Made by a program: the position numbers and the translations under genes
Shown: piece after piece, positions 381-63,973 of the stretch
How the letters are laid out: each line of letters starts with the position of its first letter
Numbering within the stretch: the stretch's first letter is position 1
The notes under the pieces: generated by a model
The model's input: only the letters and a program-made list of their open reading frames with translations
What the model was told of the DNA's origin: nothing
The model's database searches: none
Assembly: GCA_047602755.1 (NCBI GenBank)
Contig: JBLKOM010000005.1
Location: forward strand, 78,936-142,935
DNA: 64,000 nt
Direction: 5' to 3'
DNA from: Candidatus Woesearchaeota archaeon
Lineage (GTDB): Archaea > Nanobdellota > Nanobdellia > Woesearchaeales > JACJVV01

Positions 381-1166
381 TTATGTTAATATATAATCCC
401 CTTTTAAAAGTTTATTTGGATATACAATTATTCCTTTTTTGTCTTTGATTTCAAATTCAACAATCTTTCTTGCAGCATCATCACCACGCATTTTTAATAT
501 CTCTAATGCTCTTCCTCTTTTTCCACTGGAATATATTACATTGTAAATAACAACAATTCCGTCAGAGAGAAAACTAATTGCTTCACCTGCCTCTGAAAAT
601 GAATTTTTTAAGTGTGAAGGATGTGCTTCTTCTCTGATAAGAAATGAGCTAATTTTATTTGCTTCTAAATACCTAAATAGTTGTTCCATATAAATTCTAA
701 ATCTGTTTTGTTCTCCAGTAAATGCTGATGAAATACTACTTAATGAATCTACTACTAATAAATCAGGTGTGAAATCTTTAGGGATTAATACTGGATGCAA
801 ATCAATTAGTAATTCTTTTTTTGCTTCAGATAATAATGCTTCAACACTTCTTGCAATATCAAGTGCATTAAAACGTTTTATTCTAAGAACATCTTTGTGT
901 TCATAAATTTCAGGATCAAATCCAAAATCTTCCATGTGTTCTCTTAATCTTTCCTCTGGTTCTTCAAAACTCATATATAGTACTTTTTTTCCTGCTTTAC
1001 ATGCTTCGTGTAGTATGTGTAGGCATAATGCTGTTTTTCCTGAACCAGGACCACCTTCTACTATTACAGCATTCCCTTCAGGTATTCCATACTTTAAGAG
1101 ATCATCAAAACCAGGTACATTTGTTTTAAAACGATTAATTCTTTTTCTCTTTTTCATCCTTATCAC
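381..1166 (-). CDS. KaiC/RecA-superfamily P-loop ATPase (KaiC-like, single domain)
   Basis: Walker A GGPGSGKT and overall KaiC/RadA-like domain layout. Its start overlaps the upstream membrane-protein gene by 32 nt. Confidence 0.75.
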   Translation of the reverse strand: MIRMKKRKRINRFKTNVPGFDDLLKYGIPEGNAVIVEGGPGSGKTALCLHILHEACKAGKKVLYMSFEEPEERLREHMEDFGFDPEIYEHKDVLRIKRFNALDIARSVEALLSEAKKELLIDLHPVLIPKDFTPDLLVVDSLSSISSAFTGEQNRFRIYMEQLFRYLEANKISSFLIREEAHPSHLKNSFSEAGEAISFLSDGIVVIYNVIYSSGKRGRALEILKMRGDDAARKIVEFEIKDKKGIIVYPNKLLKGDYILT

Positions 1167-7902: not shown

Positions 7903-8124
7903 TTATATATCACATTTACTAAATCCACATTCATCATTAACACAGCTATGGCATCCACCTTCAACTTTAAGTGTTTGTTTACCGCATGCAGGACACTTTG
8001 CTAGTGTTAAGTCAGCAACTATTGAATTATCTGCAACTTCATTTACTTTTACAGTACTTGCATTTGTAAAAACTTCTTCATCTTCTTCTATTTCTTCAAT
8101 TGTAAAATAACTCACTATCTTCAC
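7903..8124 (-). CDS. Stand-alone Cys-rich zinc-finger protein corresponding to the C-terminal redox zinc finger of class II RNRs
   Basis: CPACGK...CHSCVNDECGFSKC, i.e. CxxC...CxxC plus extra Cys. A GTG start overlaps the nrdJ TGA stop (GTGA). Confidence 0.6.
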   Translation of the reverse strand: MKIVSYFTIEEIEEDEEVFTNASTVKVNEVADNSIVADLTLAKCPACGKQTLKVEGGCHSCVNDECGFSKCDI

Positions 8125-10970
8125 CTCTGTGCTTTTAATAAATGATATACTGTTGATAATTTACCATCAGGCATATGGATAACTGTATCTCCTTTGCCTT
8201 CAATTATAGAACCATCTGGTCCTGTAAGTTTATAGGATTTATCCTTAAATGTCTGAAATTCAGTCTTTTTTGCTTCTGATGACAAAATTGGGAATCTGCT
8301 TCCTTCACGGTAGATTGTTATACCTTTAAGATTATGTTTCCATGCATCTAAATAAATCTTTGAAATTGTTTCAGGTTCAATATCTTCTGGAAGATTCACT
8401 GTTGATGATATACTTTGATCAATATAATCTTGACATATTCCTTGAATTCTAACTCTTTTATGTGCATCAATATTATGAGCTGTTCTGAAAAAGTAAGGTG
8501 GAAGATATTTTTTTAACTCTTCTTCATTTGCATTTTTTGCTTTTTCTGTTAATCCTTTCTTGTCTAAATATGCTTGGACTGTTGGATGGAATACCTTAAA
8601 GAATACATTTCCAAAGGATTCACTTCTTCTAGTATAATACAATGCAAATATTGGTTCAACGCCACCACTCACTCCAATATAATTTTTGTTACCTTCTCTA
8701 AAACCAACACATATATTTGAAATAGTTCCTGTTGGTGCAATAGCCATTGTAGCAACATTTCTAACTCCATGTTGTTTTATTAGCGTTTTAACATCATCAT
8801 TAAGTGCTTCTTTAAAGAAAGGGCATTCACTATATTTAGAATAATCAAAAATAGGAATTGCTCCTTTTTCTTCTGCTAATAATGCAGTTGCTTCATAAGA
8901 TTTATTTGCAATATATTTCATTACTTTTTCAATAACTATAATACCTTCATCACTATCATAACCCATACCTAATTGATTTAACATGTCTGCAATTCCAATT
9001 ACTCCCATACCTATTCTTCGTGTTAATTTTGCAGCTTCACGTTGTGTATCAAGAGGATTCATTTTTTCATTCCAACTTATAACATTGTCTAAAAATCTAA
9101 CTAAAGTATGGATTGTTTCTCCTAACCTATCCCAGTTTATTTCTGCTGAATCAGTATATCCATTATCAACCATTCTTGACAAATTAACACTTCCTAAATT
9201 ACAAGCCCCACCTTTTTCAAGTGGAACTTCGCCACAAGGGTTTGTTGAAGAAATAGGTCTTCCTAAATAATTAGATGGACTATATCCAGCCATTCTTGAC
9301 CATAAAATTAGTCCTGGTTCTGCAGTCTTATAGTTTCCTTCTACAAAAAGATTCCATATATTTCTTGCTTTTACTAATTTTTTAATTTCACCAGTAGGCT
9401 TTGAATTAAAATAAAGCATATAATCTCCAGAAAATTTAATTGCTAATTGTGATTCACCTGTTTTAACTATAAAATCACCAAAAACATCTCTATGGTTTTG
9501 TTCATTTAAGTCATCTTTGTTTAATGGATTTAAGTATCCATGATTCTCTTTTAGATATTTATTTAGCTTTTCGATGTTGTCAAATTTTTCAAGAAGTTTA
9601 TACTTCTCAACAGGTTTTGAAGGCATACCAAACGAATAATTAACATTAGGTATATCTTGCATTTTTGGTGAATTGTCTACAGATTTATCCATTTCATATA
9701 CTAAAACTGTGTCTTTTCCATATTTATTTTGTTCTTCAACAGCTGTCATAAATTCATCAGTGACTTTTAAGCTAATATTTGCAAATCTTACTTGAGTGTT
9801 TTCTCTTACTTGTCTTTCAATTTCATTAAGATCTGCTTCATCAAATTTATTGGACCATTTACATTGTTCAACAATTTGGCTTGTGACCCAATTAGAAACT
9901 TTTTTTACTTGAACAAATGATTCAACATCAGGATGCTTTACATCTAATGTTAACATTAACGCTCCTCGCCTTCCAGATTGGCCAATTAATCCTGTTGTTA
10001 AGCTATATAATTCCATGAATGAGACTGCTCCTGTGCTATGATCTGCAGCATTATGAACTACTGCATTTTTTGGTCGAAGAACAGATATATCAATACCAAT
10101 CCCACCACCATAAGAATATGTTCTTGCAGCTTCAAAAGCAGCATTATATATTGATTCTATATTATCATCATCTATTAATGTAACAAAACAGTTAGATAGG
10201 GTTTTAAGCCTGTATAAGTCTCCTGCACCAGCATTTACTCTACCACCAGCAACAAAATATCCTTCATAAAAACAATCATAAAACTTTTTTGCCCAAGCTA
10301 ATTGTTTCTTTTCTGTTGGTTCAACTGTAGCCATAAAAGCAGATAATCTTGCAAACATATCTTCCGGTCGTTGTTCAATCGGATGCCCTTCAAGATCTTT
10401 TAAATAGTATTTCTTTCTAAAAATATTATCCGCTAAATCATTTCCACTTATATAATCATTTTCAGAATGAATTGGAAGTTCACCGCTTACTTGCATTTTT
10501 CTTAATCTGAAAAGAAGTACTTTATAATCATTTAACATATCTTTTTCAATTATATTACTTAATTTACTTTTATGCTTAAACATTTCAGCTATTTTAACAG
10601 ATACTTCATCATCTAATTCAATGTTTTCAAGTTCTAATTTTTGAAGTCTTTCAATTTCTCTCAGTTGTTTGTGCTTTTCTCTATAAAGAATAAATGCTTT
10701 AGCTGTTTTTGCATGACCTTGTTCAATCAATATTTTTTCAACTTCATCTTGAATTTGTTCAACATCTAATGGTTTATCAACATTATATTTATTTTTGATT
10801 GAAGAAATTACATTTTCACTTAATTCTTCTGCAACTGAGATATCTGACCCACCTACAGATTGGGCTGCTTTGTAAATAGCATTTGTAATCTTTTGTTTTT
10901 CAAAAGAAACAATTTCACCAGTTCTTTTTTTAACATTTAATTCAGATAATTGTTGAGTTGATAACACCAT
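8121..10970 (-). CDS. nrdJ: Class II (adenosylcobalamin-dependent) ribonucleotide reductase with N-terminal ATP cone
   Basis: ATP-cone-like N-terminus VKKRTGEIVSFEKQKI. Finger-loop NPCGEV, ACNLGSVNL and AIAPTGTIS motifs. 949 aa. Confidence 0.95.
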   Translation of the reverse strand: MVLSTQQLSELNVKKRTGEIVSFEKQKITNAIYKAAQSVGGSDISVAEELSENVISSIKNKYNVDKPLDVEQIQDEVEKILIEQGHAKTAKAFILYREKHKQLREIERLQKLELENIELDDEVSVKIAEMFKHKSKLSNIIEKDMLNDYKVLLFRLRKMQVSGELPIHSENDYISGNDLADNIFRKKYYLKDLEGHPIEQRPEDMFARLSAFMATVEPTEKKQLAWAKKFYDCFYEGYFVAGGRVNAGAGDLYRLKTLSNCFVTLIDDDNIESIYNAAFEAARTYSYGGGIGIDISVLRPKNAVVHNAADHSTGAVSFMELYSLTTGLIGQSGRRGALMLTLDVKHPDVESFVQVKKVSNWVTSQIVEQCKWSNKFDEADLNEIERQVRENTQVRFANISLKVTDEFMTAVEEQNKYGKDTVLVYEMDKSVDNSPKMQDIPNVNYSFGMPSKPVEKYKLLEKFDNIEKLNKYLKENHGYLNPLNKDDLNEQNHRDVFGDFIVKTGESQLAIKFSGDYMLYFNSKPTGEIKKLVKARNIWNLFVEGNYKTAEPGLILWSRMAGYSPSNYLGRPISSTNPCGEVPLEKGGACNLGSVNLSRMVDNGYTDSAEINWDRLGETIHTLVRFLDNVISWNEKMNPLDTQREAAKLTRRIGMGVIGIADMLNQLGMGYDSDEGIIVIEKVMKYIANKSYEATALLAEEKGAIPIFDYSKYSECPFFKEALNDDVKTLIKQHGVRNVATMAIAPTGTISNICVGFREGNKNYIGVSGGVEPIFALYYTRRSESFGNVFFKVFHPTVQAYLDKKGLTEKAKNANEEELKKYLPPYFFRTAHNIDAHKRVRIQGICQDYIDQSISSTVNLPEDIEPETISKIYLDAWKHNLKGITIYREGSRFPILSSEAKKTEFQTFKDKSYKLTGPDGSIIEGKGDTVIHMPDGKLSTVYHLLKAQR

Positions 10971-11197: not shown

Positions 11198-12265
11198 TTA
11201 ACATTCTGCGCAAAAACTGTTAATAGTCATTTGTTGATCAGCTTCAAATATTAAATTACTAACCTTAATACCTAGTAATCTAACTTTAGTTTCTTCGTTT
11301 GTACACTTTAAACTATTTAACAAATATTGAATTTTGTTTTTGATAATCTCTTTGGATGTCATTGGAATTTTTAATGATATATCACGAGATATTGTGTTAA
11401 AATCTGAAAATCTAACTTTTAGTGAAACTGTTTTAAAACTATATTTATCCATATCAAGTTCATTTATTAATTCAGTAATATAATTATCACAGTTTGTTAA
11501 AAATATATCTGTGTCAAATGTCATCTCTTTGCTTATTGATTTTCTTGGACCATATTCTTCATTAACTTTGCTTTTGTCATTACCTTTTGCTAATTCTTGT
11601 AGTCCAATTATCCAAGTACCAAAATTATCAATTAATTTGAAAGTATTATATTTAGCTAGGTTGTCTATTGTAAGGATATTTAGTTTTTTAAGTTTTTCAA
11701 ATGTTTTTTTCCCAATTCCTGAAATTTTAGTTACTTCTAGTGGTGCTAAAAAGCTCTTCATATCATTAACAACAGTTATTCCATATGGTTTTTTGAAGTC
11801 TGAAGCAATTTTAGCTACATATCTAGATTCAGAAACACCGATGGAACATTTTAATTTTGTTGTATTATATATATGATCTTGGATATATTTTGCAGCATCT
11901 TCAATATTAGGAAATCTTTTTGCAAATGCAGTAATATCTAGATAAGCCTCATCAATAGAAACTTGCTCAATAAATGTTGCAAACTTTTTTAATTCAAACA
12001 TTACATTAGAAGATTCATTTTTATATAATATGAAGTTAGGCTTTAGATATGTTCCGTTAGGGCAAAGTTTTATGGCTTTGCTAATGGGTAATGCACTTTT
12101 AAGGCCATATTTTCTTGCTTCATAATTTGCTGTGCATAAAACACCCCTATTTGATGAAGGTAGTGCACCTATTGCAACAGGTTTTCCAACTAAACTTGGA
12201 TCATATTTTTCTTCACATGCTGCAAAAAAACAATCCATATCAATATGAGCAATTATTTGTTTCAT
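11198..12265 (-). CDS. dinB: Y-family DNA polymerase IV (Dpo4/Dbh/DinB)
   Basis: N-terminal HIDMDCFFAACEE, followed by the SIDEAYLDIT and GIGKKT motifs typical of DinB/Dpo4. Confidence 0.9.
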   Translation of the reverse strand: MKQIIAHIDMDCFFAACEEKYDPSLVGKPVAIGALPSSNRGVLCTANYEARKYGLKSALPISKAIKLCPNGTYLKPNFILYKNESSNVMFELKKFATFIEQVSIDEAYLDITAFAKRFPNIEDAAKYIQDHIYNTTKLKCSIGVSESRYVAKIASDFKKPYGITVVNDMKSFLAPLEVTKISGIGKKTFEKLKKLNILTIDNLAKYNTFKLIDNFGTWIIGLQELAKGNDKSKVNEEYGPRKSISKEMTFDTDIFLTNCDNYITELINELDMDKYSFKTVSLKVRFSDFNTISRDISLKIPMTSKEIIKNKIQYLLNSLKCTNEETKVRLLGIKVSNLIFEADQQMTINSFCAEC

Positions 12266-20075: not shown

Positions 20076-22178
20076 GTGAAAAGATCACAGATTTCAATAT
20101 TTTTAGTTTTAGGTATTGTTTTAATTGTAATGCTTGCTTCGTTCATTTTAATAAATTTCAATATTGCTGATTTAGAGATTGAACAGGATACAGCAATAAA
20201 TATGGAATTTGTTAATGATCCTATTTTTCTTTATGTTACAGAATGCTTGAATTCAATTAGCTATGATGCTATTATTGAAATAGGTGAACATGGAGGTTAT
20301 GCAGATATAGAGCGTTATGGACTAAATGTAAATCCAAATGATCCTTTAAATTCAGAGGCTGTAGCTTTATCATTAACTGGTTCTTCAGATGCTTCTTCAA
20401 GTTTATTTGCTATACCATATTTTTTTCATATGGTAAGTCCTACAGGTTGTGCTGTAGGTTGTGAGTTTTTAATATCAATCCCTGAATTGTATAAAACTTC
20501 AGGGGTGCGTTCTATTGAAGGAGAATTAGATTATTTTGTCGATGCACATCTTGAAAGATGTATTGATGATTTTAGGACTTTTAGGCAAACAGGTTATGAT
20601 ATTACTATTTTAGATAAGCCAAAAGTTGATTCTAGAGTAAATATTAACTCAATTAGTTTTATGTTGTATTATCCTATCCAGATTTCACAAGGCGGAAATG
20701 TTTATACTATTGACAGATACTATTATGAGCATGATATTAATTTTGGGAATATACTTGAGATGGCAATTGATGTAACATATACACAAGCAGAATATAGGTT
20801 TTTAGAATATCAAGTATTAGATATGTTAAGTGCTTATTCAGGTTTAGATAATGTTTTGCCACCTTTAGCAGATTCTACTTTTAATTTTGGTGATCCAGGA
20901 CAAATCTGGGTAAAATCAGATGTTAAAAATTCTATGCAGGATATTTTAATGAAATATGTCAATGCATTAAGAGTATATGGTTCTAATAATTATGTTGATT
21001 TAGGTGATGATGAATTTTCTGCACGATATTTAGATCACCAAATGCGTGTTGTTTTATCAAGAGATTATGATTTAGATATTTTTTTTAATTATTTATCATT
21101 GTGGCCCATTTATTTTGATATGAATTGTGAGGGAGAAATATGTCGACCTGAATCATTTTCAACTTCTTTATTACCATTTATAGGAACACAGCGTTATGAA
21201 TTTTTTTATTCAGTATCTCATCCAGTTCTAGTTAAAATACATGATCCTACTGCATTTAATGGTGAAGGTTATAATTTTTATTTCTTTTTAGAGTCAAACA
21301 TTTTTAATAATGATATTATTTGGCCAGGTGGTTTTGGTGCTTTTGAATCACCTACTTCAGGCTCTAGTTTAATGTGTAATGAGAATCAAAAAACGTCTGG
21401 AGTTCATACTATGGAAATTATAGATGGAATTACAGGTGAATTAGTTGAAGATGTTTTATTAATGTTTAATTGTGCAACTGAAAGTTGTACAATGGATCCT
21501 ATTACTAACGGTACATTTGAAAGTTCTTTACCTGTATGTGTAGGAGGTAGATTAATATTACAAAAAGAGGGTTATATGACTAAATCTGTTTATGTTGAAC
21601 CAAGATTAGATGAAGATGATAATATAGGTGAAGTGGTATTTGAACCTTTACGAAACGTTGAAATTAATATAAATAAAATTAAAATATTAAAAGATCTTGA
21701 TATTAATAATTGGACTCAGCAAGGCCAAGGTGGTTTAAGAGCAAATCAAGAAGCAACTATTATACTTACATCTGTTAATAATCCTGAATTTATTCAGCTT
21801 GTTACTATCGATGGAAATGATAAGGGTACAGCTAGACTTGTTCCGGGTGAATATCATGTTCAAGTGTTTTTGCTTGATAAAAATACGATTATAATACCTG
21901 AAGATGAGCGTCAAGAAACAGCTTTAGGAGGGATTATACGAAATAGATACACTATGCCAGAAGTTATTTTTAATGAATCAAATCCTTGGCAATTAGGAGG
22001 ACTTGATGGAAATTATAGGTTAAATCGTGTTAATGAAGGTGATACAGTAACAATTAGTGTTATTGCTTTAGAAATGGGTGAAGTTCTTGAAGAAAATAGG
22101 AAAATTGAAGATATAGAAGTATTATCTTTTTTAGAAGATTATATGGAACGCTATAATCATTTATTAGGTTTTAGGTAG
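20076..22178 (+). CDS. Large (700 aa) Cys-rich surface protein with an N-terminal TM anchor
   Basis: N-terminal TM and many paired Cys. No cytoplasmic motifs. Confidence 0.55.
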   Translation: MKRSQISIFLVLGIVLIVMLASFILINFNIADLEIEQDTAINMEFVNDPIFLYVTECLNSISYDAIIEIGEHGGYADIERYGLNVNPNDPLNSEAVALSLTGSSDASSSLFAIPYFFHMVSPTGCAVGCEFLISIPELYKTSGVRSIEGELDYFVDAHLERCIDDFRTFRQTGYDITILDKPKVDSRVNINSISFMLYYPIQISQGGNVYTIDRYYYEHDINFGNILEMAIDVTYTQAEYRFLEYQVLDMLSAYSGLDNVLPPLADSTFNFGDPGQIWVKSDVKNSMQDILMKYVNALRVYGSNNYVDLGDDEFSARYLDHQMRVVLSRDYDLDIFFNYLSLWPIYFDMNCEGEICRPESFSTSLLPFIGTQRYEFFYSVSHPVLVKIHDPTAFNGEGYNFYFFLESNIFNNDIIWPGGFGAFESPTSGSSLMCNENQKTSGVHTMEIIDGITGELVEDVLLMFNCATESCTMDPITNGTFESSLPVCVGGRLILQKEGYMTKSVYVEPRLDEDDNIGEVVFEPLRNVEININKIKILKDLDINNWTQQGQGGLRANQEATIILTSVNNPEFIQLVTIDGNDKGTARLVPGEYHVQVFLLDKNTIIIPEDERQETALGGIIRNRYTMPEVIFNESNPWQLGGLDGNYRLNRVNEGDTVTISVIALEMGEVLEENRKIEDIEVLSFLEDYMERYNHLLGFR

Positions 22179-23850: not shown

Positions 23851-25335
23851 TTGATAATTCATCTATTTACATTGTGCACTAGTAATATTTATAAATTCAC
23901 GTTTTATTATATAAATATGTTAAATAAAAAAGGTGTTGGGTTCAGCACAATAATGGCTACTTTAGGAGTTATTCTTATCGGAATGGGTTTTGCATGGTTA
24001 ATCGCTCAAAATTGGCATATATTACCTTCTGCGATAAAGATTATTTTAATGGTTACATTAACGTCTGCTGCTTATTTTGTTGGCGTTATTCTTCAAATTA
24101 GAAAGTATGAGAAAATATCACATGTAGTATTATTGCTAGGTTCTTTTCTTTATAGTTTAAGCATTTTCTTAATAGCTCAAATCTTTCATACTTCTACTTC
24201 TATTCAAGGAACAGCATATTTATTCTTGCTTGCATGGCTAGGTGTAATTGCTGCAGCATATATTTTTAATTCATCACCAAGTTTGGTATTAGGTTTGGTT
24301 GAATTTTTTATTTGGATAGTATTACAATATTTTGCTTTTATAGAAATGCATAGATATGATGATTTTTCATTTGGATTAATAGTTTTAATTTTCCTTGCAA
24401 TTGGTGTTTTGTTATATGGTTTATATCTTATTCATAAATCAAAAGCATTAAGGTTTGCAAGAGTTTATCAGTGGTGGACTGCAGCATACTTTTTGCTTTT
24501 TGGTTATTGTTTAAGTTTTCAAAGTTTTTTACCGTTATTATCATTAACACATGTTACAGCATTACCAAGTACGATTACTTTTCTTGCATTCATATCTGTA
24601 TTAGCTTTAATAACATTTTTTGCAGGTATAATTGTTGCGACTGGAAATAAATCGGTTACAAGTAAAGAACTTATAGGGGTTGGTTTAATTATAGTTTTAT
24701 TGTTAATACTTATTTTGTTTGCTTCTATAATGCCAAATAGATTTGGAAATTGTTATTCTAAATCATGTTATGATAATGTGGATAGAGATACTTGTTTAAC
24801 ATATGCAGATTCTTTAGGTTGTGAATGGAATTATTATCAAGATCAATTTGATAATGGTGTTAGTAATGAATTTTCTGGGCGTGGATATTGTTCAGTAAAA
24901 GAGGGAATTGCATTTCAAACAATTAATCGTGAGATATCAAGTATATGCAGAGAATATAATAATAATCCTGATAAATGTTTGTCTAGGAAAGACGTTTGTT
25001 CATGGAGTCCAACTTACTATTATTCAGGTGGGTGGGGAAGATCTGTTCCTATGGAGTTATGGGTATTATGGATTTTCTCTAATATTGTTTTTTTAGGATT
25101 AATATTATCAATTATACTTTATGGTACATGGCAAAAACTTCCAAAAATAGTTAATCTTGGTATATTCTTTTTTGTATTAAATGTTATAAGTAGATATATT
25201 GGTTTTTTAATGGATTATGGTGGCTATCTTGGGTTTGCATTTGTATTAATTTCAGGTGGATTGCTTTTAATTTTTGGTGGATGGGGTATTGAGAAATGGC
25301 GAAGAAATCTCGTAAACAAAACAAGGAAAAACTAG
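23851..25335 (+). CDS. Polytopic membrane protein with a Cys-rich extracellular loop (DUF2157-like)
   Basis: More than 10 TM segments. The loop contains CYSKSCYDN...C...C...C...C. Followed by a GDYXXLXY-like gene. Confidence 0.5.
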   Translation: MIIHLFTLCTSNIYKFTFYYINMLNKKGVGFSTIMATLGVILIGMGFAWLIAQNWHILPSAIKIILMVTLTSAAYFVGVILQIRKYEKISHVVLLLGSFLYSLSIFLIAQIFHTSTSIQGTAYLFLLAWLGVIAAAYIFNSSPSLVLGLVEFFIWIVLQYFAFIEMHRYDDFSFGLIVLIFLAIGVLLYGLYLIHKSKALRFARVYQWWTAAYFLLFGYCLSFQSFLPLLSLTHVTALPSTITFLAFISVLALITFFAGIIVATGNKSVTSKELIGVGLIIVLLLILILFASIMPNRFGNCYSKSCYDNVDRDTCLTYADSLGCEWNYYQDQFDNGVSNEFSGRGYCSVKEGIAFQTINREISSICREYNNNPDKCLSRKDVCSWSPTYYYSGGWGRSVPMELWVLWIFSNIVFLGLILSIILYGTWQKLPKIVNLGIFFFVLNVISRYIGFLMDYGGYLGFAFVLISGGLLLIFGGWGIEKWRRNLVNKTRKN

Positions 25336-25817
25336 CACGATTAGTCTTAGGATTAGGTCTTATTTTGGTTATTTTAGTTGTTTTTATAACTGTATTATCA
25401 TGGCCATTATTAACTGGTACAACAATTGAACTTGCTACATACCCAGTAGACCCTTTTGATCCCTTACGAGGACAATATATGATTATTAATTATGAAATAA
25501 ATAATATTCATCATCAATTTGTTCCTGGACAAACTATTTATGTGATGCTTGAGCCAGATGATGAAGGCATCTGGAGATATGTTGAAGCATCACTTAGTAA
25601 ACCAGCAAAGGGTGTTTTTATAAAGGGAAGAGTTACTTCCAGAATTGTTGAATATGGTATTGAACAATTCTTTTTTGAGAGAAATGCTATTGTTCCTGAG
25701 ACAGATATAACTGTTGAAGTAAAAGTTGATTCAAATGGTAATGCAAGGCTTGTGCAACTTCTTCAAAATAGAGAGCCAATAAATATTAAATATAATCCTA
25801 GAAAAGTTTCAAGATGA
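25296..25817 (+). CDS. Membrane-anchored GDYXXLXY-like protein
   Basis: N-terminal TM and a GQYMIINY motif resembling the GDYXXLXY family, which partners DUF2157. Confidence 0.45.
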   Translation: MAKKSRKQNKEKLARLVLGLGLILVILVVFITVLSWPLLTGTTIELATYPVDPFDPLRGQYMIINYEINNIHHQFVPGQTIYVMLEPDDEGIWRYVEASLSKPAKGVFIKGRVTSRIVEYGIEQFFFERNAIVPETDITVEVKVDSNGNARLVQLLQNREPINIKYNPRKVSR

Positions 25818-25901
25818 TAGTTTTTAATATATAATTTTTTAGTTCTTATTACCTATAAAATCTCATAATATTTATATAATTTCAATACTTATACCTATTC
25901 A

Positions 25902-28166
25902 ATGGTAGCAATTAGAGCATATCTGGTAGATTTAAAGTATGTAATAGAAGAAACTATATTAGTTTCATTATACTGTAGAACACCAGAAGGTAAAATAGTA
26001 GTTATAAAAGATTCATTTAGACCAAATTTTTTTATTTTGCCAAAAAAAGATATAGATGTCACAGCCTTAAGGGCAAAGATAGGTCGCTTAAGAATAGATG
26101 ATAATAATTATGTTATATCTACTAATATCTCAAAACTAATTCTAAATTGTCAAGAAGAAAGTTTTATCCAGGTTTTTTTATCAAGGCCTGAAGCAATGCG
26201 CGGTATACGAAATATAATACGTAATTGGCCAGAAATAATTAACTTTTTTGAAGATGATATTTCTTTAACAAGAAGATATTTACTTGAGAATAAGATTGTA
26301 CCATATAGTGTTTTTGAGGCTGAAGTTACTGAAGAAGATGATTATTATAAATTAGTAAAATTTACAAATAAAGATATTTCTTTTATTGAGCCTAAACTAA
26401 TGTCAATCACTGCAATTTATGATTTTGATAGGCATGGTCAAAAAGCAATTTCTTCAATATGTTGTTCTTCTGCAAAAACAACTGTAATTACATGGAAGCA
26501 TTTGCAACAAAAAAATGAGATACTTACAGTTAAAAGTGAGGAAGAATTATTGAATGCTTTTAAACAATTAATTTTGCGTGAAAAGCCAGATATAATCTTG
26601 TTTGAAGATACTTCATTTAGATTAAAAGATATTATGATTCGTGCGAAAAAATACAATATTTCAATGAATATATGTATTGATCATACAGAGCCTTATATAA
26701 GTCCAATTAATTCTAGGATTAGAACAATTGGTATTAATGAAGTTTTTATTACAAGAATTATTACTAATTTTATTGATATGTCATTAGCTGACAAGAACCT
26801 TGAAAATGCATACCAGAATATAACTGGTATTGTTAATATTGTTGGTTTATTAGAAAATAATGATGTAATTAATATGATTTATAGAAAAGCAAAAATCAAT
26901 CATTTACTTTTTTCATCTTTATTTAATAATTTAACAGAATTATTTAAATTAGTAGGATTACGTGCTGCTGATGTATTAAATTTTTCGCTTAGTAGTGTTA
27001 TTGAATGGTCATTAATTAAACAATGTATTCAAAATAGACATATTGTACTTAATCGGCATGCTTATGATTTTAAAAATGAAGCTTTATTACGATATCATCC
27101 AGTAATTGATCCTGTTCCTGGTATTTATGATAATGTAGCAATTATTGATCTTTCATCAGTCTATCCTCAGCTAATAATAGCAGAACAAATTTCTCCTGAT
27201 ACTATCTCTTGTGACTTAGAAAATGTAAAGGGGGTTTTGCCAATAATTATTGAAGATATGGTATCAAGAATTGATAGGATTAATATTGCATTAAGTAAGA
27301 CACAAAATGATAATTTAATTAGAAGGAAACTAATTTTGTTGCGAATAACAAACTATTTTTATGAATATCTTAATAATCAATATTCGCGTTGGTATTCTAA
27401 AGAATTGCTTGAAAAAATTAATTCTGCAGCTAAGAATAAAATTCATGAATTAATCGGTGTAATTAATTCAATTAATAAAGTTGTTTTTTCAGATTATCAT
27501 GAATTATTTATTGAGTTAAAAGAACCAGAGAATGATTTATTATTACGGTTACATAGAATTTCAAGTATAACTTCCAAGTTAGAATGTAAAGATATTGCTA
27601 AGAAAATTTTATTTCTTCCAAGAGATGATAAATTTCATAAGAAAAGATATGCATATATTAATTCTGAGAATAAAATAGTTACACAAAATATTATAAAAAA
27701 CTCATATCCTATTTACATTAATGAAATTCTTACAAAAGTCATAAACATGGTTTTAACTGATTCTCCTAAAAATGAAATAATAATTGAGCTTCATTCGATG
27801 ATATTAGATTTGTTAAAGCATAAAATCTCAAATGAAAAATTATTAATTAATTCTAAATTAACTAAAGACATTCGTTTGTATCATGAGCGCACTATTCAAT
27901 TTCATTTAATTAATCATCTAAAAAAGCAAAATATTAATGTTGTTAAAGGTGATAGAATAAGTTACATTGTCGCTGAGATGGATGAACCAATTTCAAAAAG
28001 ATCTTTTCTTTTAAATGAAATGGATAATAAGAAATATGATCCCGATTATTATATTGAAAAATTGTTATTACCTATTCTAGAAGATTTGCTTAGGTTAAAA
28101 GGAATATCAATACAAGAAGTTGAGCAAGCAAGTTCACAAATGCAGTTAAGTAAGTTTTTAAAGTAA
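25902..28166 (+). CDS. Family B DNA polymerase homologue with degenerate exonuclease and motif C catalytic residues (probably inactivated PolB)
   Basis: PolB-like N-terminus (SFRPNFFIL, LTRRYLLENKIVP). Motif A is DLSSVYPQLI...SPDT. Motif B is KLILLRITNYFYEY. Motif C reads SDYHE instead of DTD. Exo I reads YDFDR instead of FDIET. Confidence 0.75.
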   Translation: MVAIRAYLVDLKYVIEETILVSLYCRTPEGKIVVIKDSFRPNFFILPKKDIDVTALRAKIGRLRIDDNNYVISTNISKLILNCQEESFIQVFLSRPEAMRGIRNIIRNWPEIINFFEDDISLTRRYLLENKIVPYSVFEAEVTEEDDYYKLVKFTNKDISFIEPKLMSITAIYDFDRHGQKAISSICCSSAKTTVITWKHLQQKNEILTVKSEEELLNAFKQLILREKPDIILFEDTSFRLKDIMIRAKKYNISMNICIDHTEPYISPINSRIRTIGINEVFITRIITNFIDMSLADKNLENAYQNITGIVNIVGLLENNDVINMIYRKAKINHLLFSSLFNNLTELFKLVGLRAADVLNFSLSSVIEWSLIKQCIQNRHIVLNRHAYDFKNEALLRYHPVIDPVPGIYDNVAIIDLSSVYPQLIIAEQISPDTISCDLENVKGVLPIIIEDMVSRIDRINIALSKTQNDNLIRRKLILLRITNYFYEYLNNQYSRWYSKELLEKINSAAKNKIHELIGVINSINKVVFSDYHELFIELKEPENDLLLRLHRISSITSKLECKDIAKKILFLPRDDKFHKKRYAYINSENKIVTQNIIKNSYPIYINEILTKVINMVLTDSPKNEIIIELHSMILDLLKHKISNEKLLINSKLTKDIRLYHERTIQFHLINHLKKQNINVVKGDRISYIVAEMDEPISKRSFLLNEMDNKKYDPDYYIEKLLLPILEDLLRLKGISIQEVEQASSQMQLSKFLK

Positions 28167-28201: not shown

Positions 28202-28759
28202 TTATTTGTTCTTGAGAAATTTTTTTAACATGTCAAATGCTTTTTTTCTTTGACTAATTTTATTCTTTATTTCAGCAGGAATACTTGCAAAAGTATCATC
28301 TAATCCATTTGCTTTGAAAATAGTATCCCATCCATTCTTAAAACCATAACCTTTTGAAGATGGTTTAACAATTGTACCATTACATTTCCCAGTGAAAACT
28401 ATTGTTTGTTTTCCGTCACAATAACCTATTGAAGTAAAGCTATATCCTGACTTATCATCAAATCCATATAATAATTTGTAAACGCCTTTAGGACCTATTG
28501 CTTTAAGAAAATGTTTAATATATATCCCAGGCATACCATTTAAAGCATTAAAAGCAAGACCTGTATCATCTACAATTACTGGTTTTTTAGTTTTTTGATA
28601 TGCTAACTTTGCTTTCTCAGAGACTACTTCTTCAGGTGTTCCTTGAAGTTCAGGCAGATCAATATCAATTGCTTTAACAGTGACATTTACAAGAATCTCA
28701 GATGCTTCTCTTGCCTTGTCAGGATTTCCTGTTACAAAATATAATTTATTTTTTTTCAT
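28202..28759 (-). CDS. rdgB: Non-canonical purine NTP pyrophosphatase (RdgB/HAM1/ITPase)
   Basis: GNPDKAREASEIL and TGLAFNALNGMPGIYIKHF motifs. Confidence 0.9.
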   Translation of the reverse strand: MKKNKLYFVTGNPDKAREASEILVNVTVKAIDIDLPELQGTPEEVVSEKAKLAYQKTKKPVIVDDTGLAFNALNGMPGIYIKHFLKAIGPKGVYKLLYGFDDKSGYSFTSIGYCDGKQTIVFTGKCNGTIVKPSSKGYGFKNGWDTIFKANGLDDTFASIPAEIKNKISQRKKAFDMLKKFLKNK

Positions 28760-42903: not shown

Positions 42904-44685
42904 ATGTCAGAAGTTATTAACTTAGCAACTATATTAGGAGCTACTGATTCGCAAAACACTGCACCTCAACAAGCACCAAGACAAGAATCTCGACAGATTT
43001 CTGTAGATTATTTATCAGCATTAAATGATTTAGTAGGTCCTAAATCTGCTTTAGCAATTGCAACAAAATATTCACCAAAGGACATTTCTCGAATCGAGAA
43101 TCGTTATGATGAATTTAAATTTGATACTCAACCAAAAACTCCTAAAGGTAAACTTCAGAGAATTTTGAAATTTTTAGAATGGGAAAAAGAATTTTCTGAA
43201 GTAGTACATATGGGTTATTATATGGAAAATATTACTGAATCTTTTAGTGGATTTGAAACTTTAGTCAATAAACTAATTGCAACAGGAAATAAAGAAGTTA
43301 TGAATTTTAATCCTTTTATTAGAGACCAATTAAATGGCGTTGCAAGAAATTTATTATTATATTATGGTGAAGAGCTTACTGATGAAAATAAAAAAACAGG
43401 TCATGTAGCAAGAATAGCAGATTATACTCCAAAAAAAGTTGTTCCCGGAATAAGTACAGATGAACTTGTTGATTTTCTTATTGCAAAGAAACTTGCAAAC
43501 ACTCCTGCTTGTGAATATTCAATTGTTCCTGGGTTTGATGATGCAAAAACTGCGCTTGAAGTGTCAGTAATGACAAACCATCCTTCACTGGCAGAGATGT
43601 ATGTTAGAAATGGATTTACTTCATTATCACAAATTCAAACTGTTAGTTTAGATAAATTAAAAAAAATTGAAGAAGAAATGCAATTTAGAGGAAAATTGAA
43701 TTCAGAAACATATCATCAAAAAAACTATAGAAGATTTGTTGGTAATTATATAAGAGGAAATCCTCAAAGAGTTGATGAAATATTAGCTCTTGCTCAAGCA
43801 GGTGGTCAAGAATATTTGGTTGCATTTGATGGTAGTGTTAGACAAACACAAAGAATTTTAAAAATACTTGAAGAAGAAAGACCTTCTGCAAGTGCAATCC
43901 AGTATGCAAGAGATGTATTAAAAGTTCATGAGTTTAAGGCTGCAGTTGCACTTGCAAAAGAAATAGATTCTCCTTACAAAAAAGTATTTGAGCAAGAATT
44001 TACAACAAAAGAAGAGTTTTTAGCTTTCAGAGATGATTATCAAGCAACTCTTGATGATTTTATTGAAAAAACTGGAATACAACCTGATGACAATGGAAAA
44101 ATTTCAAGATTTTCTTATGATGATATTAAAGCATTTAAAGGAGATTTAAGATTTTTTTCAGATAATTTTAGCACAGGCAACTTAGATCAACTAGCAAAAA
44201 TCGAAAGTGTGATGGATTTTGAAACTTATCAATCTCTTAATATAAGTGCAAAACCAACTCTAATTCCTATTTTAATTGATAATGGATATACAGTACAGGA
44301 AATGCAAGAGGCTTTTAGTGGTAAACCTAAAGTAGATGGATATCAATTAGCGAGATATTTCGAAAAACTAAAAGTAAATATTCCATTAATAATTTCATTA
44401 ATAGATATAATTGATGTAATTGCAACAGGTGTAACTGCTCAATATGCTAGTGATATGTTAGTAGCTGTTCCTTTTAACGAAAATGGAATACCTTATGGAG
44501 TTTTAAGTAGCTTACAATCGCATGAAGTTACTCCATCACAATTTAAGTCATTTATACAAACTGTAGGGGTTAGCAGATATCAACCTAGTCAAGAAGAATT
44601 GAAAGGACTAAGATCTGCAGAAGCAAACTTTGATGCAGTAAGCATGATTAGAGATTTTAAAACATTTTATAATCAAAAAGAATAA
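42904..44685 (+). CDS. Large soluble hypothetical protein (593 aa), orphan
   Basis: Long ORF with no TM and no recognised motif. GC slightly above neighbours. Confidence 0.55.
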   Translation: MSEVINLATILGATDSQNTAPQQAPRQESRQISVDYLSALNDLVGPKSALAIATKYSPKDISRIENRYDEFKFDTQPKTPKGKLQRILKFLEWEKEFSEVVHMGYYMENITESFSGFETLVNKLIATGNKEVMNFNPFIRDQLNGVARNLLLYYGEELTDENKKTGHVARIADYTPKKVVPGISTDELVDFLIAKKLANTPACEYSIVPGFDDAKTALEVSVMTNHPSLAEMYVRNGFTSLSQIQTVSLDKLKKIEEEMQFRGKLNSETYHQKNYRRFVGNYIRGNPQRVDEILALAQAGGQEYLVAFDGSVRQTQRILKILEEERPSASAIQYARDVLKVHEFKAAVALAKEIDSPYKKVFEQEFTTKEEFLAFRDDYQATLDDFIEKTGIQPDDNGKISRFSYDDIKAFKGDLRFFSDNFSTGNLDQLAKIESVMDFETYQSLNISAKPTLIPILIDNGYTVQEMQEAFSGKPKVDGYQLARYFEKLKVNIPLIISLIDIIDVIATGVTAQYASDMLVAVPFNENGIPYGVLSSLQSHEVTPSQFKSFIQTVGVSRYQPSQEELKGLRSAEANFDAVSMIRDFKTFYNQKE

Positions 44686-62437: not shown

Positions 62438-63973
62438 TTATTTCTTTAAGCCTATTGGTTGATGCATTTTACTTTGATCGCGATAAATTGTTATACCTTT
62501 TAGTCCTAGTTTCATTGCTTCAACATATATTGATTTAACATCTTCTGGTGATGCATATTGATTGATATTTACTGTTTTTGAGATAGCTTCATCTGTGAAT
62601 TTTTGGAATGCAGACACTATTGCAAGTTGCCTATCAGCTGAGATATCTAATTGAGATAAATAAATATTCCGAATTTCTTCAGGTATTAAAATTGGATCAC
62701 CTTGGTCTTTTAATTCTAATATTTTTTCAATTGCAGGTTTAACATAACCATATTCTTCTAATTGGTTGTATAACACTTCTCTCATGTTTGTTGATAATTT
62801 ATCTGAAAAATATGGTTCAATAGATGGACTTGCATCAATAACAAGTGAGCTTCTTCCAGTGGGAGGTAAAGCAGTAGTACTTACATGTCTTATTCCAGTC
62901 TTAGCTATTGTTTCTTCTAGCTCAATCCAATCTCTTACAGTCACCATTGCAGTAGAATATTTCCCAAATCTATCTGCAATATATCCTTTCCCAATTTTAG
63001 TTTCAGTATCATAAAAGGCAGGGAATGGTCCACGTTCTTTTGATAGTTCTATTGAAGCTTCTTTAGAGGTATAATTTACAAAACTCATTAGTTCTTCGGC
63101 AATTATTTCTGCATCAAATGAATCATAAGGAATTTTTAATTTTGCTAACATATCAGCAAATCCGCAAATCCCTAATCCTATTTTTCTTTTTTTATTCATT
63201 ATATCTACACTTGTGTCATTACCATAATTTGATATGCTTATATCTAATGCATCATCAAGAAATCTTACAACATCATGTATTGCTCGTCTTAATTCAGAAT
63301 ATGAAATTCTATTTTTATCTACAAATGCACCTACATTAAGATATGTAAATTGACATGTTTCACCTTCAGTCATTGCTATTTCACCGCAAGGAGCTAATGA
63401 AACATATTTTCCAAGGTGTGGTGCAGGATTATCTGTTTCAAACCGATCTAAAAAAGCAAGACCTGGATCTCCACATTCCCATGCAGAATTAACTATCTTT
63501 TCAAGTAATTCATTTGGATCAACAAAACTTCCATCTGATAATGTATAAACACTATTATTAAATAAAACTTTTACAAATTCATTTGGAACATTTACTGAAA
63601 TGTTAAAAATCCATTCTTTGTCTTTTGATTTTGTTTTACTTTCTATAAATTCAAATATCTTTGGATGATTTAAAGATATTATACCCATATTTCCTACAGG
63701 CCTATCTTGTTTGCCACTGTATTGCCCTTTAATTGCTACTTCATTTAGATAATTAAGCATCTCTACAGGATTATCACATTCATCAAAATTAAAACCAGTT
63801 CCCATCCCATTGATATGGTATTGATCTACAATTGCTTTAATTTTATTTAAATCATCACGAAGACTTATTGGAGGAACTGAACAAGCAGCTAATGGTTTAT
63901 CTTTATACCTACCTGCATTTGTCAGAAGGGTTGTGCTAGGGACAAATTGTTTACCATATAATCTTTTTGTCAT
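62438..63973 (-). CDS. nrdJ: Second class II ribonucleotide reductase paralogue lacking the ATP cone and C-terminal zinc finger
   Basis: FVPSTTLLTNAG, LAACSV, APCGEI and GETCQF(TYLNV) motifs, plus TTALPPTGRSS. 511 aa. Confidence 0.85.
   Translation of the reverse strand: MTKRLYGKQFVPSTTLLTNAGRYKDKPLAACSVPPISLRDDLNKIKAIVDQYHINGMGTGFNFDECDNPVEMLNYLNEVAIKGQYSGKQDRPVGNMGIISLNHPKIFEFIESKTKSKDKEWIFNISVNVPNEFVKVLFNNSVYTLSDGSFVDPNELLEKIVNSAWECGDPGLAFLDRFETDNPAPHLGKYVSLAPCGEIAMTEGETCQFTYLNVGAFVDKNRISYSELRRAIHDVVRFLDDALDISISNYGNDTSVDIMNKKRKIGLGICGFADMLAKLKIPYDSFDAEIIAEELMSFVNYTSKEASIELSKERGPFPAFYDTETKIGKGYIADRFGKYSTAMVTVRDWIELEETIAKTGIRHVSTTALPPTGRSSLVIDASPSIEPYFSDKLSTNMREVLYNQLEEYGYVKPAIEKILELKDQGDPILIPEEIRNIYLSQLDISADRQLAIVSAFQKFTDEAISKTVNINQYASPEDVKSIYVEAMKLGLKGITIYRDQSKMHQPIGLKK

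Follow-up and report, generated by a model that had tools for sequence, protein, structure and literature searches.

A probably catalytically dead B3-type DNA polymerase homologue conserved in a small clade of Woesearchaeota

Analyzing a 64,000-nucleotide stretch of DNA from Candidatus Woesearchaeota archaeon (GenBank assembly GCA_047602755.1, contig JBLKOM010000005.1, positions 78,936 to 142,935; hereafter the window), we found that the open reading frame (ORF) at 25902..28166 (+) encodes a homologue of family-B DNA polymerases (PolB) that is probably a catalytically dead, exapted offshoot of the archaeal B3 polymerases, kept intact under purifying selection and serving as a non-enzymatic, clamp-tethered DNA-binding factor. 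The ORF starts with ATG and its 754-aa product is identical to NCBI protein MFT4303952.1, annotated as [quoted passage not shown] (MAG, metagenome-assembled genome) on a 153-kb contig. An earlier note on this DNA had described a degenerate PolB homologue here; its coordinates, strand and length were exactly reproduced, and the strings that it quoted are present in the translation, i.e. DLSSVYPQLI...SPDT of motif A at residues 416-434, KLILLRITNYFYEY of motif B at residues 476-489, S-D-Y-H of motif C at residues 530-533 and YDFDR at residues 173-177. B3 is regarded as the near-universal active PolB of archaea, and to our knowledge polymerases that are catalytically dead but conserved are rare; those that exist reveal non-enzymatic jobs such as clamp occupancy, polymerase switching and replisome scaffolding. 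Inactivated archaeal PolBs as such are already known, and what our sequence comparisons support as new is an independently inactivated B3 that retains a PCNA-interacting (PIP) box, in a small clade of Woesearchaeota.

The product matches PF00136 (DNA_pol_B) at 48.5 bits and PF03104 (DNA_pol_B_exo1) at 30.7 bits, both above the gathering threshold of 23 bits in the profile check that the earlier note had suggested, and misses all NCBIfam equivalog cut-offs by far (74 against 692 bits for the best, NF004418, and 60 against 570 bits for NF004421). A phmmer search of the PDB aligned it end to end with Pyrococcus furiosus (Pfu) PolB (3a2f; E = 1.2e-46, query residues 8-737 against chain residues 2-753), bearing out the proposed archaeal PolB homology; matches to Sulfolobus Dpo1 (Sso, B1; E = 0.0098) and E. 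coli Pol II (3k57; E = 2.5) were negligible. Aligning the family profile by hhalign to 24 canonical relatives headed by Pfu gave a probability of 100 and E = 2e-106, and the query is ~22% identical to the B3 PolBs of Thermococcales. The AlphaFold2 (AF2) model used here, built from a 72-sequence alignment, reached a predicted local distance difference test score (pLDDT) of 89.6 and a predicted template modelling score (pTM) of 0.84, an earlier model from a 10-sequence alignment having been poorer (pLDDT 69, with residues 229-398 below 50). In this model the full N-terminal, exonuclease, palm, fingers and thumb architecture, i.e. the five-domain PolB fold, is retained, and the best Foldseek matches to it were all B3 structures (Pab, KOD, 9N and Tgo PolB; template modelling score 0.74-0.80). 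A neighbour-joining tree over 760 trimmed columns, rooted on the B7 sequence P0013 and holding ~50 canonical relatives and Pfu with no B1 or B2 references, placed the 13 sequences of the clade described below in one group on a long stem, within the radiation that contains Pfu. Judging from this placement and from the uniformly B3 structural matches, the dead-PolB clade derives from B3 and is nested among active B3 polymerases. The next tier of profile matches (~25% identity, ~800 aa) is overwhelmingly canonical PolB with all catalytic residues and a C-terminal PIP box, including a Nanoarchaeota (P0020) and a Woesearchaeota (P0023) sequence. Compared with the B3 enzymes of Pfu, KOD, Tgo, 9°N and P. 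abyssi, the query shares their length, five-domain fold, N-terminal-domain motifs, motif A Asp, steric-gate Tyr, KxY motif and C-terminal PIP box, whereas the exonuclease carboxylates, the distal motif C Asp, R461, K465 and K488 are substituted and YxGG is substituted or deleted.

Catalytic columns were assigned by phmmer, MAFFT L-INS-i and hhalign together with the AF2 secondary structure, all of which agree, and Pfu numbering was checked on D141/E143, D215, Y311/D315, D405, K488 and D541/D543 of the Pfu chain in the alignment. The exonuclease-like domain (residues 142-340, 26325..26921; this and all other features within the gene are on the + strand) keeps its fold with every catalytic carboxylate replaced. 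In Exo I (S168-I-T-A-I172, nt 26403-26417) Pfu D141 and E143 correspond to T170 and I172; thus the loss of Exo I claimed in the earlier note holds, but its choice of YDFDR as the counterpart of FDIET does not, the true counterpart being the strand at residues 168-172 and YDFDR (173-177) forming the acidic loop just after it, equivalent to Pfu 'HEGEEF'. Exo II (LFEDTSFRL, nt 26598-26624) was correctly called altered, with N210/D215 replaced by E235/R240, and in Exo III (MIYRKA, nt 26874-26891) Y311/D315 are replaced by M325/K329, the Exo III helix being present at residues 319-351. In the polymerase half, the two glycines of YxGG (Pfu Y385-x-G-G) are deleted, and motif A (IIDLSSVYPQLIIAEQISP, 27141..27197) keeps D416 (Pfu D405) and the steric-gate Y421 (Pfu Y410). 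Within the fingers (residues 446-491, 27237..27374) R461/K465 read I457/N461, and in motif B (RKLILLRITNYFYEY, nt 27324-27368) K488 reads L480, G496 reads E488 and the N492 position is variable. Motif C lies in a beta-hairpin (VVFSDYHELF, 27480..27509) where Pfu D541-T-D543-G aligns with D531-Y532-H533-E534, so only the proximal Asp is kept; in the AF2 model D531-Y532-H533 forms the hairpin tip between strands 526-530 and 534-538, i.e. the position of DTD. The altered Asp pair that the earlier note had reported was thus recovered concordantly by phmmer, MAFFT, hhalign and AF2. The losses of R461, K465 and K488 in the fingers and of Exo III come in addition to the sites named there. A shift of motif C by two residues, with D531 as the distal Asp, was excluded by the ungapped hydrophobic pattern, by hhalign and by the hairpin register of the model; more generally, alignment guided by structure and profile did not recover the missing Asp residues as a misalignment by eye. 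In PolB, the two metals are held by the Asp of motif A together with the distal Asp of motif C (RB69 D411/D623; KOD D404/D542), and R460, K464, K487 and N491 (KOD numbering) contact the triphosphate. The substitution of the exonuclease motifs, the distal motif C Asp and the triphosphate-contacting finger residues supports the view, also taken in the earlier note, of a non-catalytic or structural PolB. Both the Asp residues and the Tyr of YGDTD have been described as essential (Rogozin et al. 2008).

The protein belongs to a small, narrow group of Woesearchaeota, as judged from three sequence searches. A word-indexed protein search returned ten proteins at 41-100% identity followed by a drop to 23%; a profile search of all 1.84 billion 50%-cluster representatives returned four clusters at 829-1324 bits with the next match at 400 bits; and a scan of GTDB species representatives returned one genome, Ca. 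Woesearchaeota HK-STAS-Nano-4. Together, the clade comprises 13 sequences in four 50%-identity clusters, and its named members are Woesearchaeota. None of the 13 retains R461, K488 or the carboxylates of Exo I, II and III. Comparing column by column with 24 active relatives, in which the catalytic columns are invariant, we found constraint relaxed in the clade at D141, D215, Y311, K465, K488, N492 and D543, with L/T/V/S/I/E at the K488 position and H/N/R/S/D/A/E at that of the distal motif C Asp (D543). Other positions were re-fixed to a new residue: D315 to K (13/13), R461 to I, T542 to Y, S544 to E and F406 to L. With D215 replaced by R or K in seven of the 13 and the D315 to K change invariant, the former exonuclease site has turned from acidic to basic. 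One member, P0015, has D-L-D in motif C, with both Asp present, and still lacks R461, K488 and all exonuclease carboxylates; by this evidence the distal position is drifting, with no selection against Asp. Mean pairwise identity within the clade is highest in the fingers (0.64), 0.60-0.63 in the N-terminal parts and 0.43 in the thumb (residues 570-737, 27609..28112), in which the KxY motif (HKKRYA, nt 27636-27653; Pfu KKRYA) is kept.

These patterns bear on whether the protein could have kept polymerase activity in a non-canonical active site, perhaps as a translesion enzyme of low activity like B2/Dpo2, with D416, D531 and perhaps E534/H533 as metal ligands and R474, R475 and R481 of the fingers replacing the canonical Lys/Arg. 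Several observations speak for such residual activity and hence weigh against a dead protein: the motif A Asp is kept in 11 of the 13 members and the proximal motif C Asp in 12, the steric-gate Tyr is invariant and KxY is conserved, the fingers are highly conserved, position 534, beside the lost Asp, has been re-fixed as acidic (E or D in 13/13), and the nearby Y-family polymerase and nucleotide-sanitising genes fit a repair theme. On the other side, the distal motif C position, elsewhere a universal metal ligand in PolB enzymology, is unconstrained and not merely replaced, P0009 and P0017 have R and S, respectively, in place of the motif A Asp, each of the four triphosphate contacts is either lost or variable, and E534 lies past the hairpin tip where, by beta-strand alternation in the model, it should face away from D531. 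There are also precedents for activity. B2/Dpo2, at first predicted to be inactive, turned out to be a translesion synthesis polymerase, weak but real (PMC7544198), and the RNA polymerase of the DPANN archaeon N. equitans works despite radical active-site substitutions (PMC8204694); B2, however, keeps the distal Asp, the opposite of the clade. Because of these two precedents we still give a non-canonical activity some weight, considering it unlikely. The preferred reading, of a dead and exapted B3, has further points to its debit, since the inactivity is deduced from sequence, PCNA and DNA binding are predicted from motifs, and an active partner polymerase in the same genome, though plausible, is presumed, the window holding no PolB or PolD besides the query.

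We also considered whether the gene is a decaying, functionless relic, recently inactivated and heading for loss, as could be expected from the reduction of DPANN genomes and from the sporadic degenerate PolB3-like sequences of Woesearchaeota (P0042, P0070 and others). The 13 members have diverged down to 38-42% identity and all are intact ORFs of ~750-780 aa. Nei-Gojobori analysis of seven orthologous coding sequences, taken from separate metagenomes and MAGs, gave a nonsynonymous divergence (dN) of 0.30-0.50 and a proportion of synonymous differences (pS) of 0.64-0.92 with no stop codons; synonymous sites (dS) were saturated in nearly all pairs, and the dN/dS argument therefore gives an upper bound only. 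The family alignment has 110 invariant columns besides the re-fixed family-specific residues, and the chance of 754 stop-free codons at the 27% G+C (GC) of the window is ~5e-29. The PolB-like protein diverges like its neighbours, being 63% and 52% identical to the window orthologue in L007 and L001, respectively, as against 73% and 53% for PGK, 72% and 58% for Ham1, and 54% and 57% for RIO kinase. Since the ORFs are intact, dN is 0.30-0.50 with saturated dS, the invariant columns are many, the divergence is neighbour-like and a chance ORF of this length is so improbable, these sequence data indicate that the clade is under purifying selection and rule out a pseudogene; the relic explanation is effectively refuted and we assign it a very low probability.

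Conserved inactivated PolBs have been described in archaea before, in the PolB2/Dpo2 family (Rogozin 2008, Makarova 2014), and membership of the query in that family would be an alternative to an independent inactivation. Both are conserved archaeal PolB homologues with a disrupted Exo I and motif C, a single motif C Asp, and a proposed structural, regulatory or repair role. In PolB2/Dpo2 the distal Asp of YGDTD is conserved and the Tyr and proximal Asp are replaced (Rogozin 2008), whereas the motif C pattern of the clade, [FY]-S-D-[YF]-x-[ED], is the opposite: Tyr/Phe and the proximal Asp stay, and it is the distal residue that varies. Exo III is missing altogether in PolB2/Dpo2, which carries a conserved His along with a D(K/R) motif (PMC7544198), whereas the clade has the Exo III helix with its Asp changed to Lys. 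PolB2/Dpo2 is encoded with arCOG07300 and an inactivated RadA (Makarova 2014); in contrast, the clade has Ham1 as its neighbour, and no RadA- or KaiC-like gene was adjacent in the seven contexts inspected, although arCOG07300 is without a Pfam model and a tiny homologue may be overlooked. Given the reversed pattern in motif C, the presence of an Exo III helix and the lack of a RadA-like neighbour, and with the nearest sequence and structure relatives being B3 and the clade nesting with Pfu in the tree, the sequences argue for an independent inactivation inside B3, and membership in the described B2/Dpo2 clade is most improbable. As for a KaiC/RadA-like gene elsewhere, an ATPase of this type (PF06745) is encoded at 381..1166 (-), 25 kb from the PolB-like gene and not adjacent to it. 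No inactivated Woesearchaeota B3 clade is described in the main text of Kazlauskas et al. 2020 (PMC7544198), nor was one found in our literature search.

Woesearchaeota and Pacearchaeota have been assigned the active, bacterial-derived Pol II-like group B7 (Kazlauskas 2020, PMC7544198). The query shares with B7 the host lineage and a similar length, and two B7-like sequences, P0013 and P0014, are among its distant matches, but B7 proteins have all catalytic motifs intact and are ~22% identical to the query (P0013, 23%, E = 1.3e-11), so that by sequence the query is not a member of the B7 family. In these two host groups B7 probably serves as the active PolB. Searching with two B7-like sequences yielded 4,895 matches at E <= 1e-30, many of them named "DNA polymerase II [Candidatus Woesearchaeota archaeon]", and none among the best 120 of these was tied to a contig carrying the dead PolB. 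A canonical B3 is present in other Woesearchaeota (P0023).

At the C-terminus, the tail Q746-M-Q-L749-S-K-F752-L (28137..28160) is disordered in the AF2 model. The QxxLxxF pattern is found in 12 of the 13 clade members and in most active relatives, and L749 is shared by all 72 aligned sequences, whether active or dead. In position and form the tail corresponds to the PIP box of archaeal PolBs, and structure 3a2f, matched above, is the complex of Pfu PolB with PCNA; by sequence, then, the C-terminal PIP motif of archaeal B3 is present in the query. The N-terminal domain (residues 7-141, equivalent to Pfu 1-130; 25920..26324) carries the conserved FEDDISLTRRYLLEN and is modelled with pLDDT >90. 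At the positions that form the uracil/hypoxanthine pocket in Tgo and Pfu PolB, Pfu Y7, P36, P90 and I114 are kept as Y13, P41, P96 and I120, and Y37, P115 and F116 are re-fixed to N42, S121 and L122. A pocket partly kept and partly re-fixed in this way neither supports nor excludes a role as lesion or base sensor.

This B3 derivative has lost its metal-binding, dNTP-binding and 3'-5' proofreading residues and has kept its fold. We propose that the disordered QxxLxxF tail would still dock the protein onto PCNA, and the retained thumb, KxY motif and N-terminal domain are predicted still to hold primer-template DNA. Placed there, the protein could act as a placeholder or regulator at primer ends, or as a scaffold in the replisome or in repair, with synthesis carried out by another polymerase, Pol II-like B7 and/or PolD. 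The re-fixed residues of the fingers and of the former exonuclease site point to a new interaction surface. Candidate roles are a primer-terminus placeholder or switch regulator, a replisome scaffold like the C-terminal part of Pol epsilon, and a lesion sensor. There is precedent for this: a structural role has been proposed for conserved inactivated PolBs (Rogozin 2008), and the dead C-terminal PolB module of Pol epsilon is essential and binds CMG (Kazlauskas 2020, PMC7544198). That module is the closest functional analogy, in the sense of how it works, with homology only through shared PolB ancestry: it too is a complete, catalytically dead PolB fold kept for a non-enzymatic replisome role beside an active polymerase (PMC7544198; see also PMC2669801). 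The Pol epsilon module is fused to an active PolB and has a Zn-binding C-terminal domain that binds the B-subunit and CMG, whereas the clade protein stands alone, has no Zn domain and carries a PIP tail instead. More speculatively, and with little confidence, we suggest that in one Woesearchaeota lineage the ancestral B3, once B7 or PolD had made it redundant, escaped loss from a streamlined DPANN genome and was exapted as a PCNA-tethered, non-catalytic part of the replisome or of a surveillance system in parallel to Pol epsilon, in which the remodelled N-terminal pocket and the Ham1/NUDIX proteins may handle deaminated bases.

Should the protein indeed be an independently inactivated B3 with a PCNA-docking tail, the B3 scaffold would have a selectable function apart from DNA synthesis. 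This would be relevant to the question of why archaea whose essential replicase is PolD keep a PolB, and the dead PolB module that eukaryotic Pol epsilon needs would have a natural counterpart that stands alone. It would also carry a warning for annotation, in that 'DNA polymerase' labels on MAGs of DPANN archaea can mislead the inference of replication capacity.

Two further sets of sequences outside the clade show partial degeneration. Eight next-tier PolB3-like proteins (P0042, P0046, P0048, P0056, P0057, P0070, P0073 and P0077) have variously degenerate exonuclease and/or polymerase motifs; P0042 and P0070 are named Woesearchaeota, seven of the eight end in a PIP-like motif, and all group near the dead clade in the neighbour-joining tree. 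They may reflect recurrent inactivation, one broader and older dead lineage, or long-branch attraction. Five near relatives (P0011, P0019, P0024, P0028 and P0029) keep all polymerase motifs and have lost some or all exonuclease carboxylates, as in P0011, where E143 is V, D215 is V and D315 is R; by their motifs these may be exo-minus intermediates.

The window is ordinary chromosome. Besides the PolB-like gene it encodes two proteins of the ribonucleotide reductase (RNR) large-subunit type, a Y-family polymerase, PGK, iPGM, a RIO kinase, a P-type ATPase, ABC and Zn transporters, thioredoxin reductase and dTMP kinase; within its 64 kb there is no PolD, PCNA or second PolB, ARAGORN found no tRNA gene, and no Rfam family reached the gathering threshold. 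In relatives, the PolB-like gene lies in a syntenic block of the order PGK, a 700-aa unknown protein, RIO kinase, PolB-like gene and Ham1. Family-B polymerases are common on archaeal mobile elements according to the literature, and the gene could in principle belong to a virus, a casposon or another integrated element. Against such an origin, the block with its housekeeping genes (PGK, RIO kinase, Ham1) is conserved across genomes at 50-63% identity, the PolB-like gene has the same GC as the rest of the window, where it is 27% throughout, the neighbours show no integrase, Cas1 or terminal-protein-type features, and there is no flanking tRNA; we therefore hold a mobile origin to be the least probable of the alternatives.

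The Ham1/ITPase-family gene (28202..28759 (-)) lies 35 bp 3' of the PolB-like gene in convergent orientation, which excludes co-transcription of the two. Six of seven lineages, that of the window included, have a convergent Ham1 gene directly after the dead PolB, also where other genes lie upstream (L001, 12725-13492; L004, 12356-12904; L007, 14858-15415; L008, 10525-11088; L011, 4230-4808); P0008 represents the sole lineage without this adjacency. Ham1 is not beside the three active relatives (L013, L016 and L017), which sit in other contexts, and the idea that the dead PolB has taken the place held by the active B3 in related DPANN archaea was accordingly rejected. We regard a functional link between Ham1 and the PolB-like gene as only a lead. 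In L001, and also in L002 and L003, a NUDIX hydrolase gene (12313-12735 in L001) starts 6 bp after the stop codon of the PolB-like gene, on the same strand and before Ham1, so that in this lineage two nucleotide-pool sanitising genes adjoin the 3' end of the PolB-like gene.

Upstream of the gene, a TATA-like TTTATATAA was seen by eye at 25871..25879 (+), 23-31 bp 5' of the ATG, in very AT-rich DNA; it could be an archaeal promoter of the PolB-like gene, a weak assignment. A sigma-70 promoter scan was uninformative for an archaeal host at 27% GC, and a terminator scan gave a single terminator-like hairpin within the PolB-like gene, which is at chance level. An antisense ORF of 72 aa inside the gene (26438..26656 (-)), for which BLAST found a 'homologue' in L001, most likely reflects conservation of the sense strand and is not a gene.

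Among the other genes of the window, the Y-family (Dpo4/DinB-like) polymerase at 11198..12265 (-) has IMS, IMS_HHH and IMS_C domains and lies 14 kb upstream of the PolB-like gene, beside an RNR barrel-domain gene at 8121..10970 (-) whose 949-aa product has an ATP cone. A second RNR barrel-domain gene, at 62438..63973 (-), encodes 511 aa that cover barrel profile positions 54-523 only and have no N-terminal domains. The 700-aa protein of the syntenic block (20076..22178 (+)) has no Pfam match and is found beside the RIO-type kinase in all related genomes at 45-55% identity (L001, 4048-6189; L004, 15050-17212; L007, 2599-4707); another large ORF with no Pfam match, of 593 aa, is at 42904..44685. 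Directly upstream of the PolB-like gene, genes for a DUF2157 membrane protein (23851..25335 (+)) and a GDYXXLXY protein (25296..25817 (+)) overlap by 40 nt, and this pair also precedes the PolB-like gene in L007 and L008, a MurJ/MatE gene occupying that place in L001 and L004.

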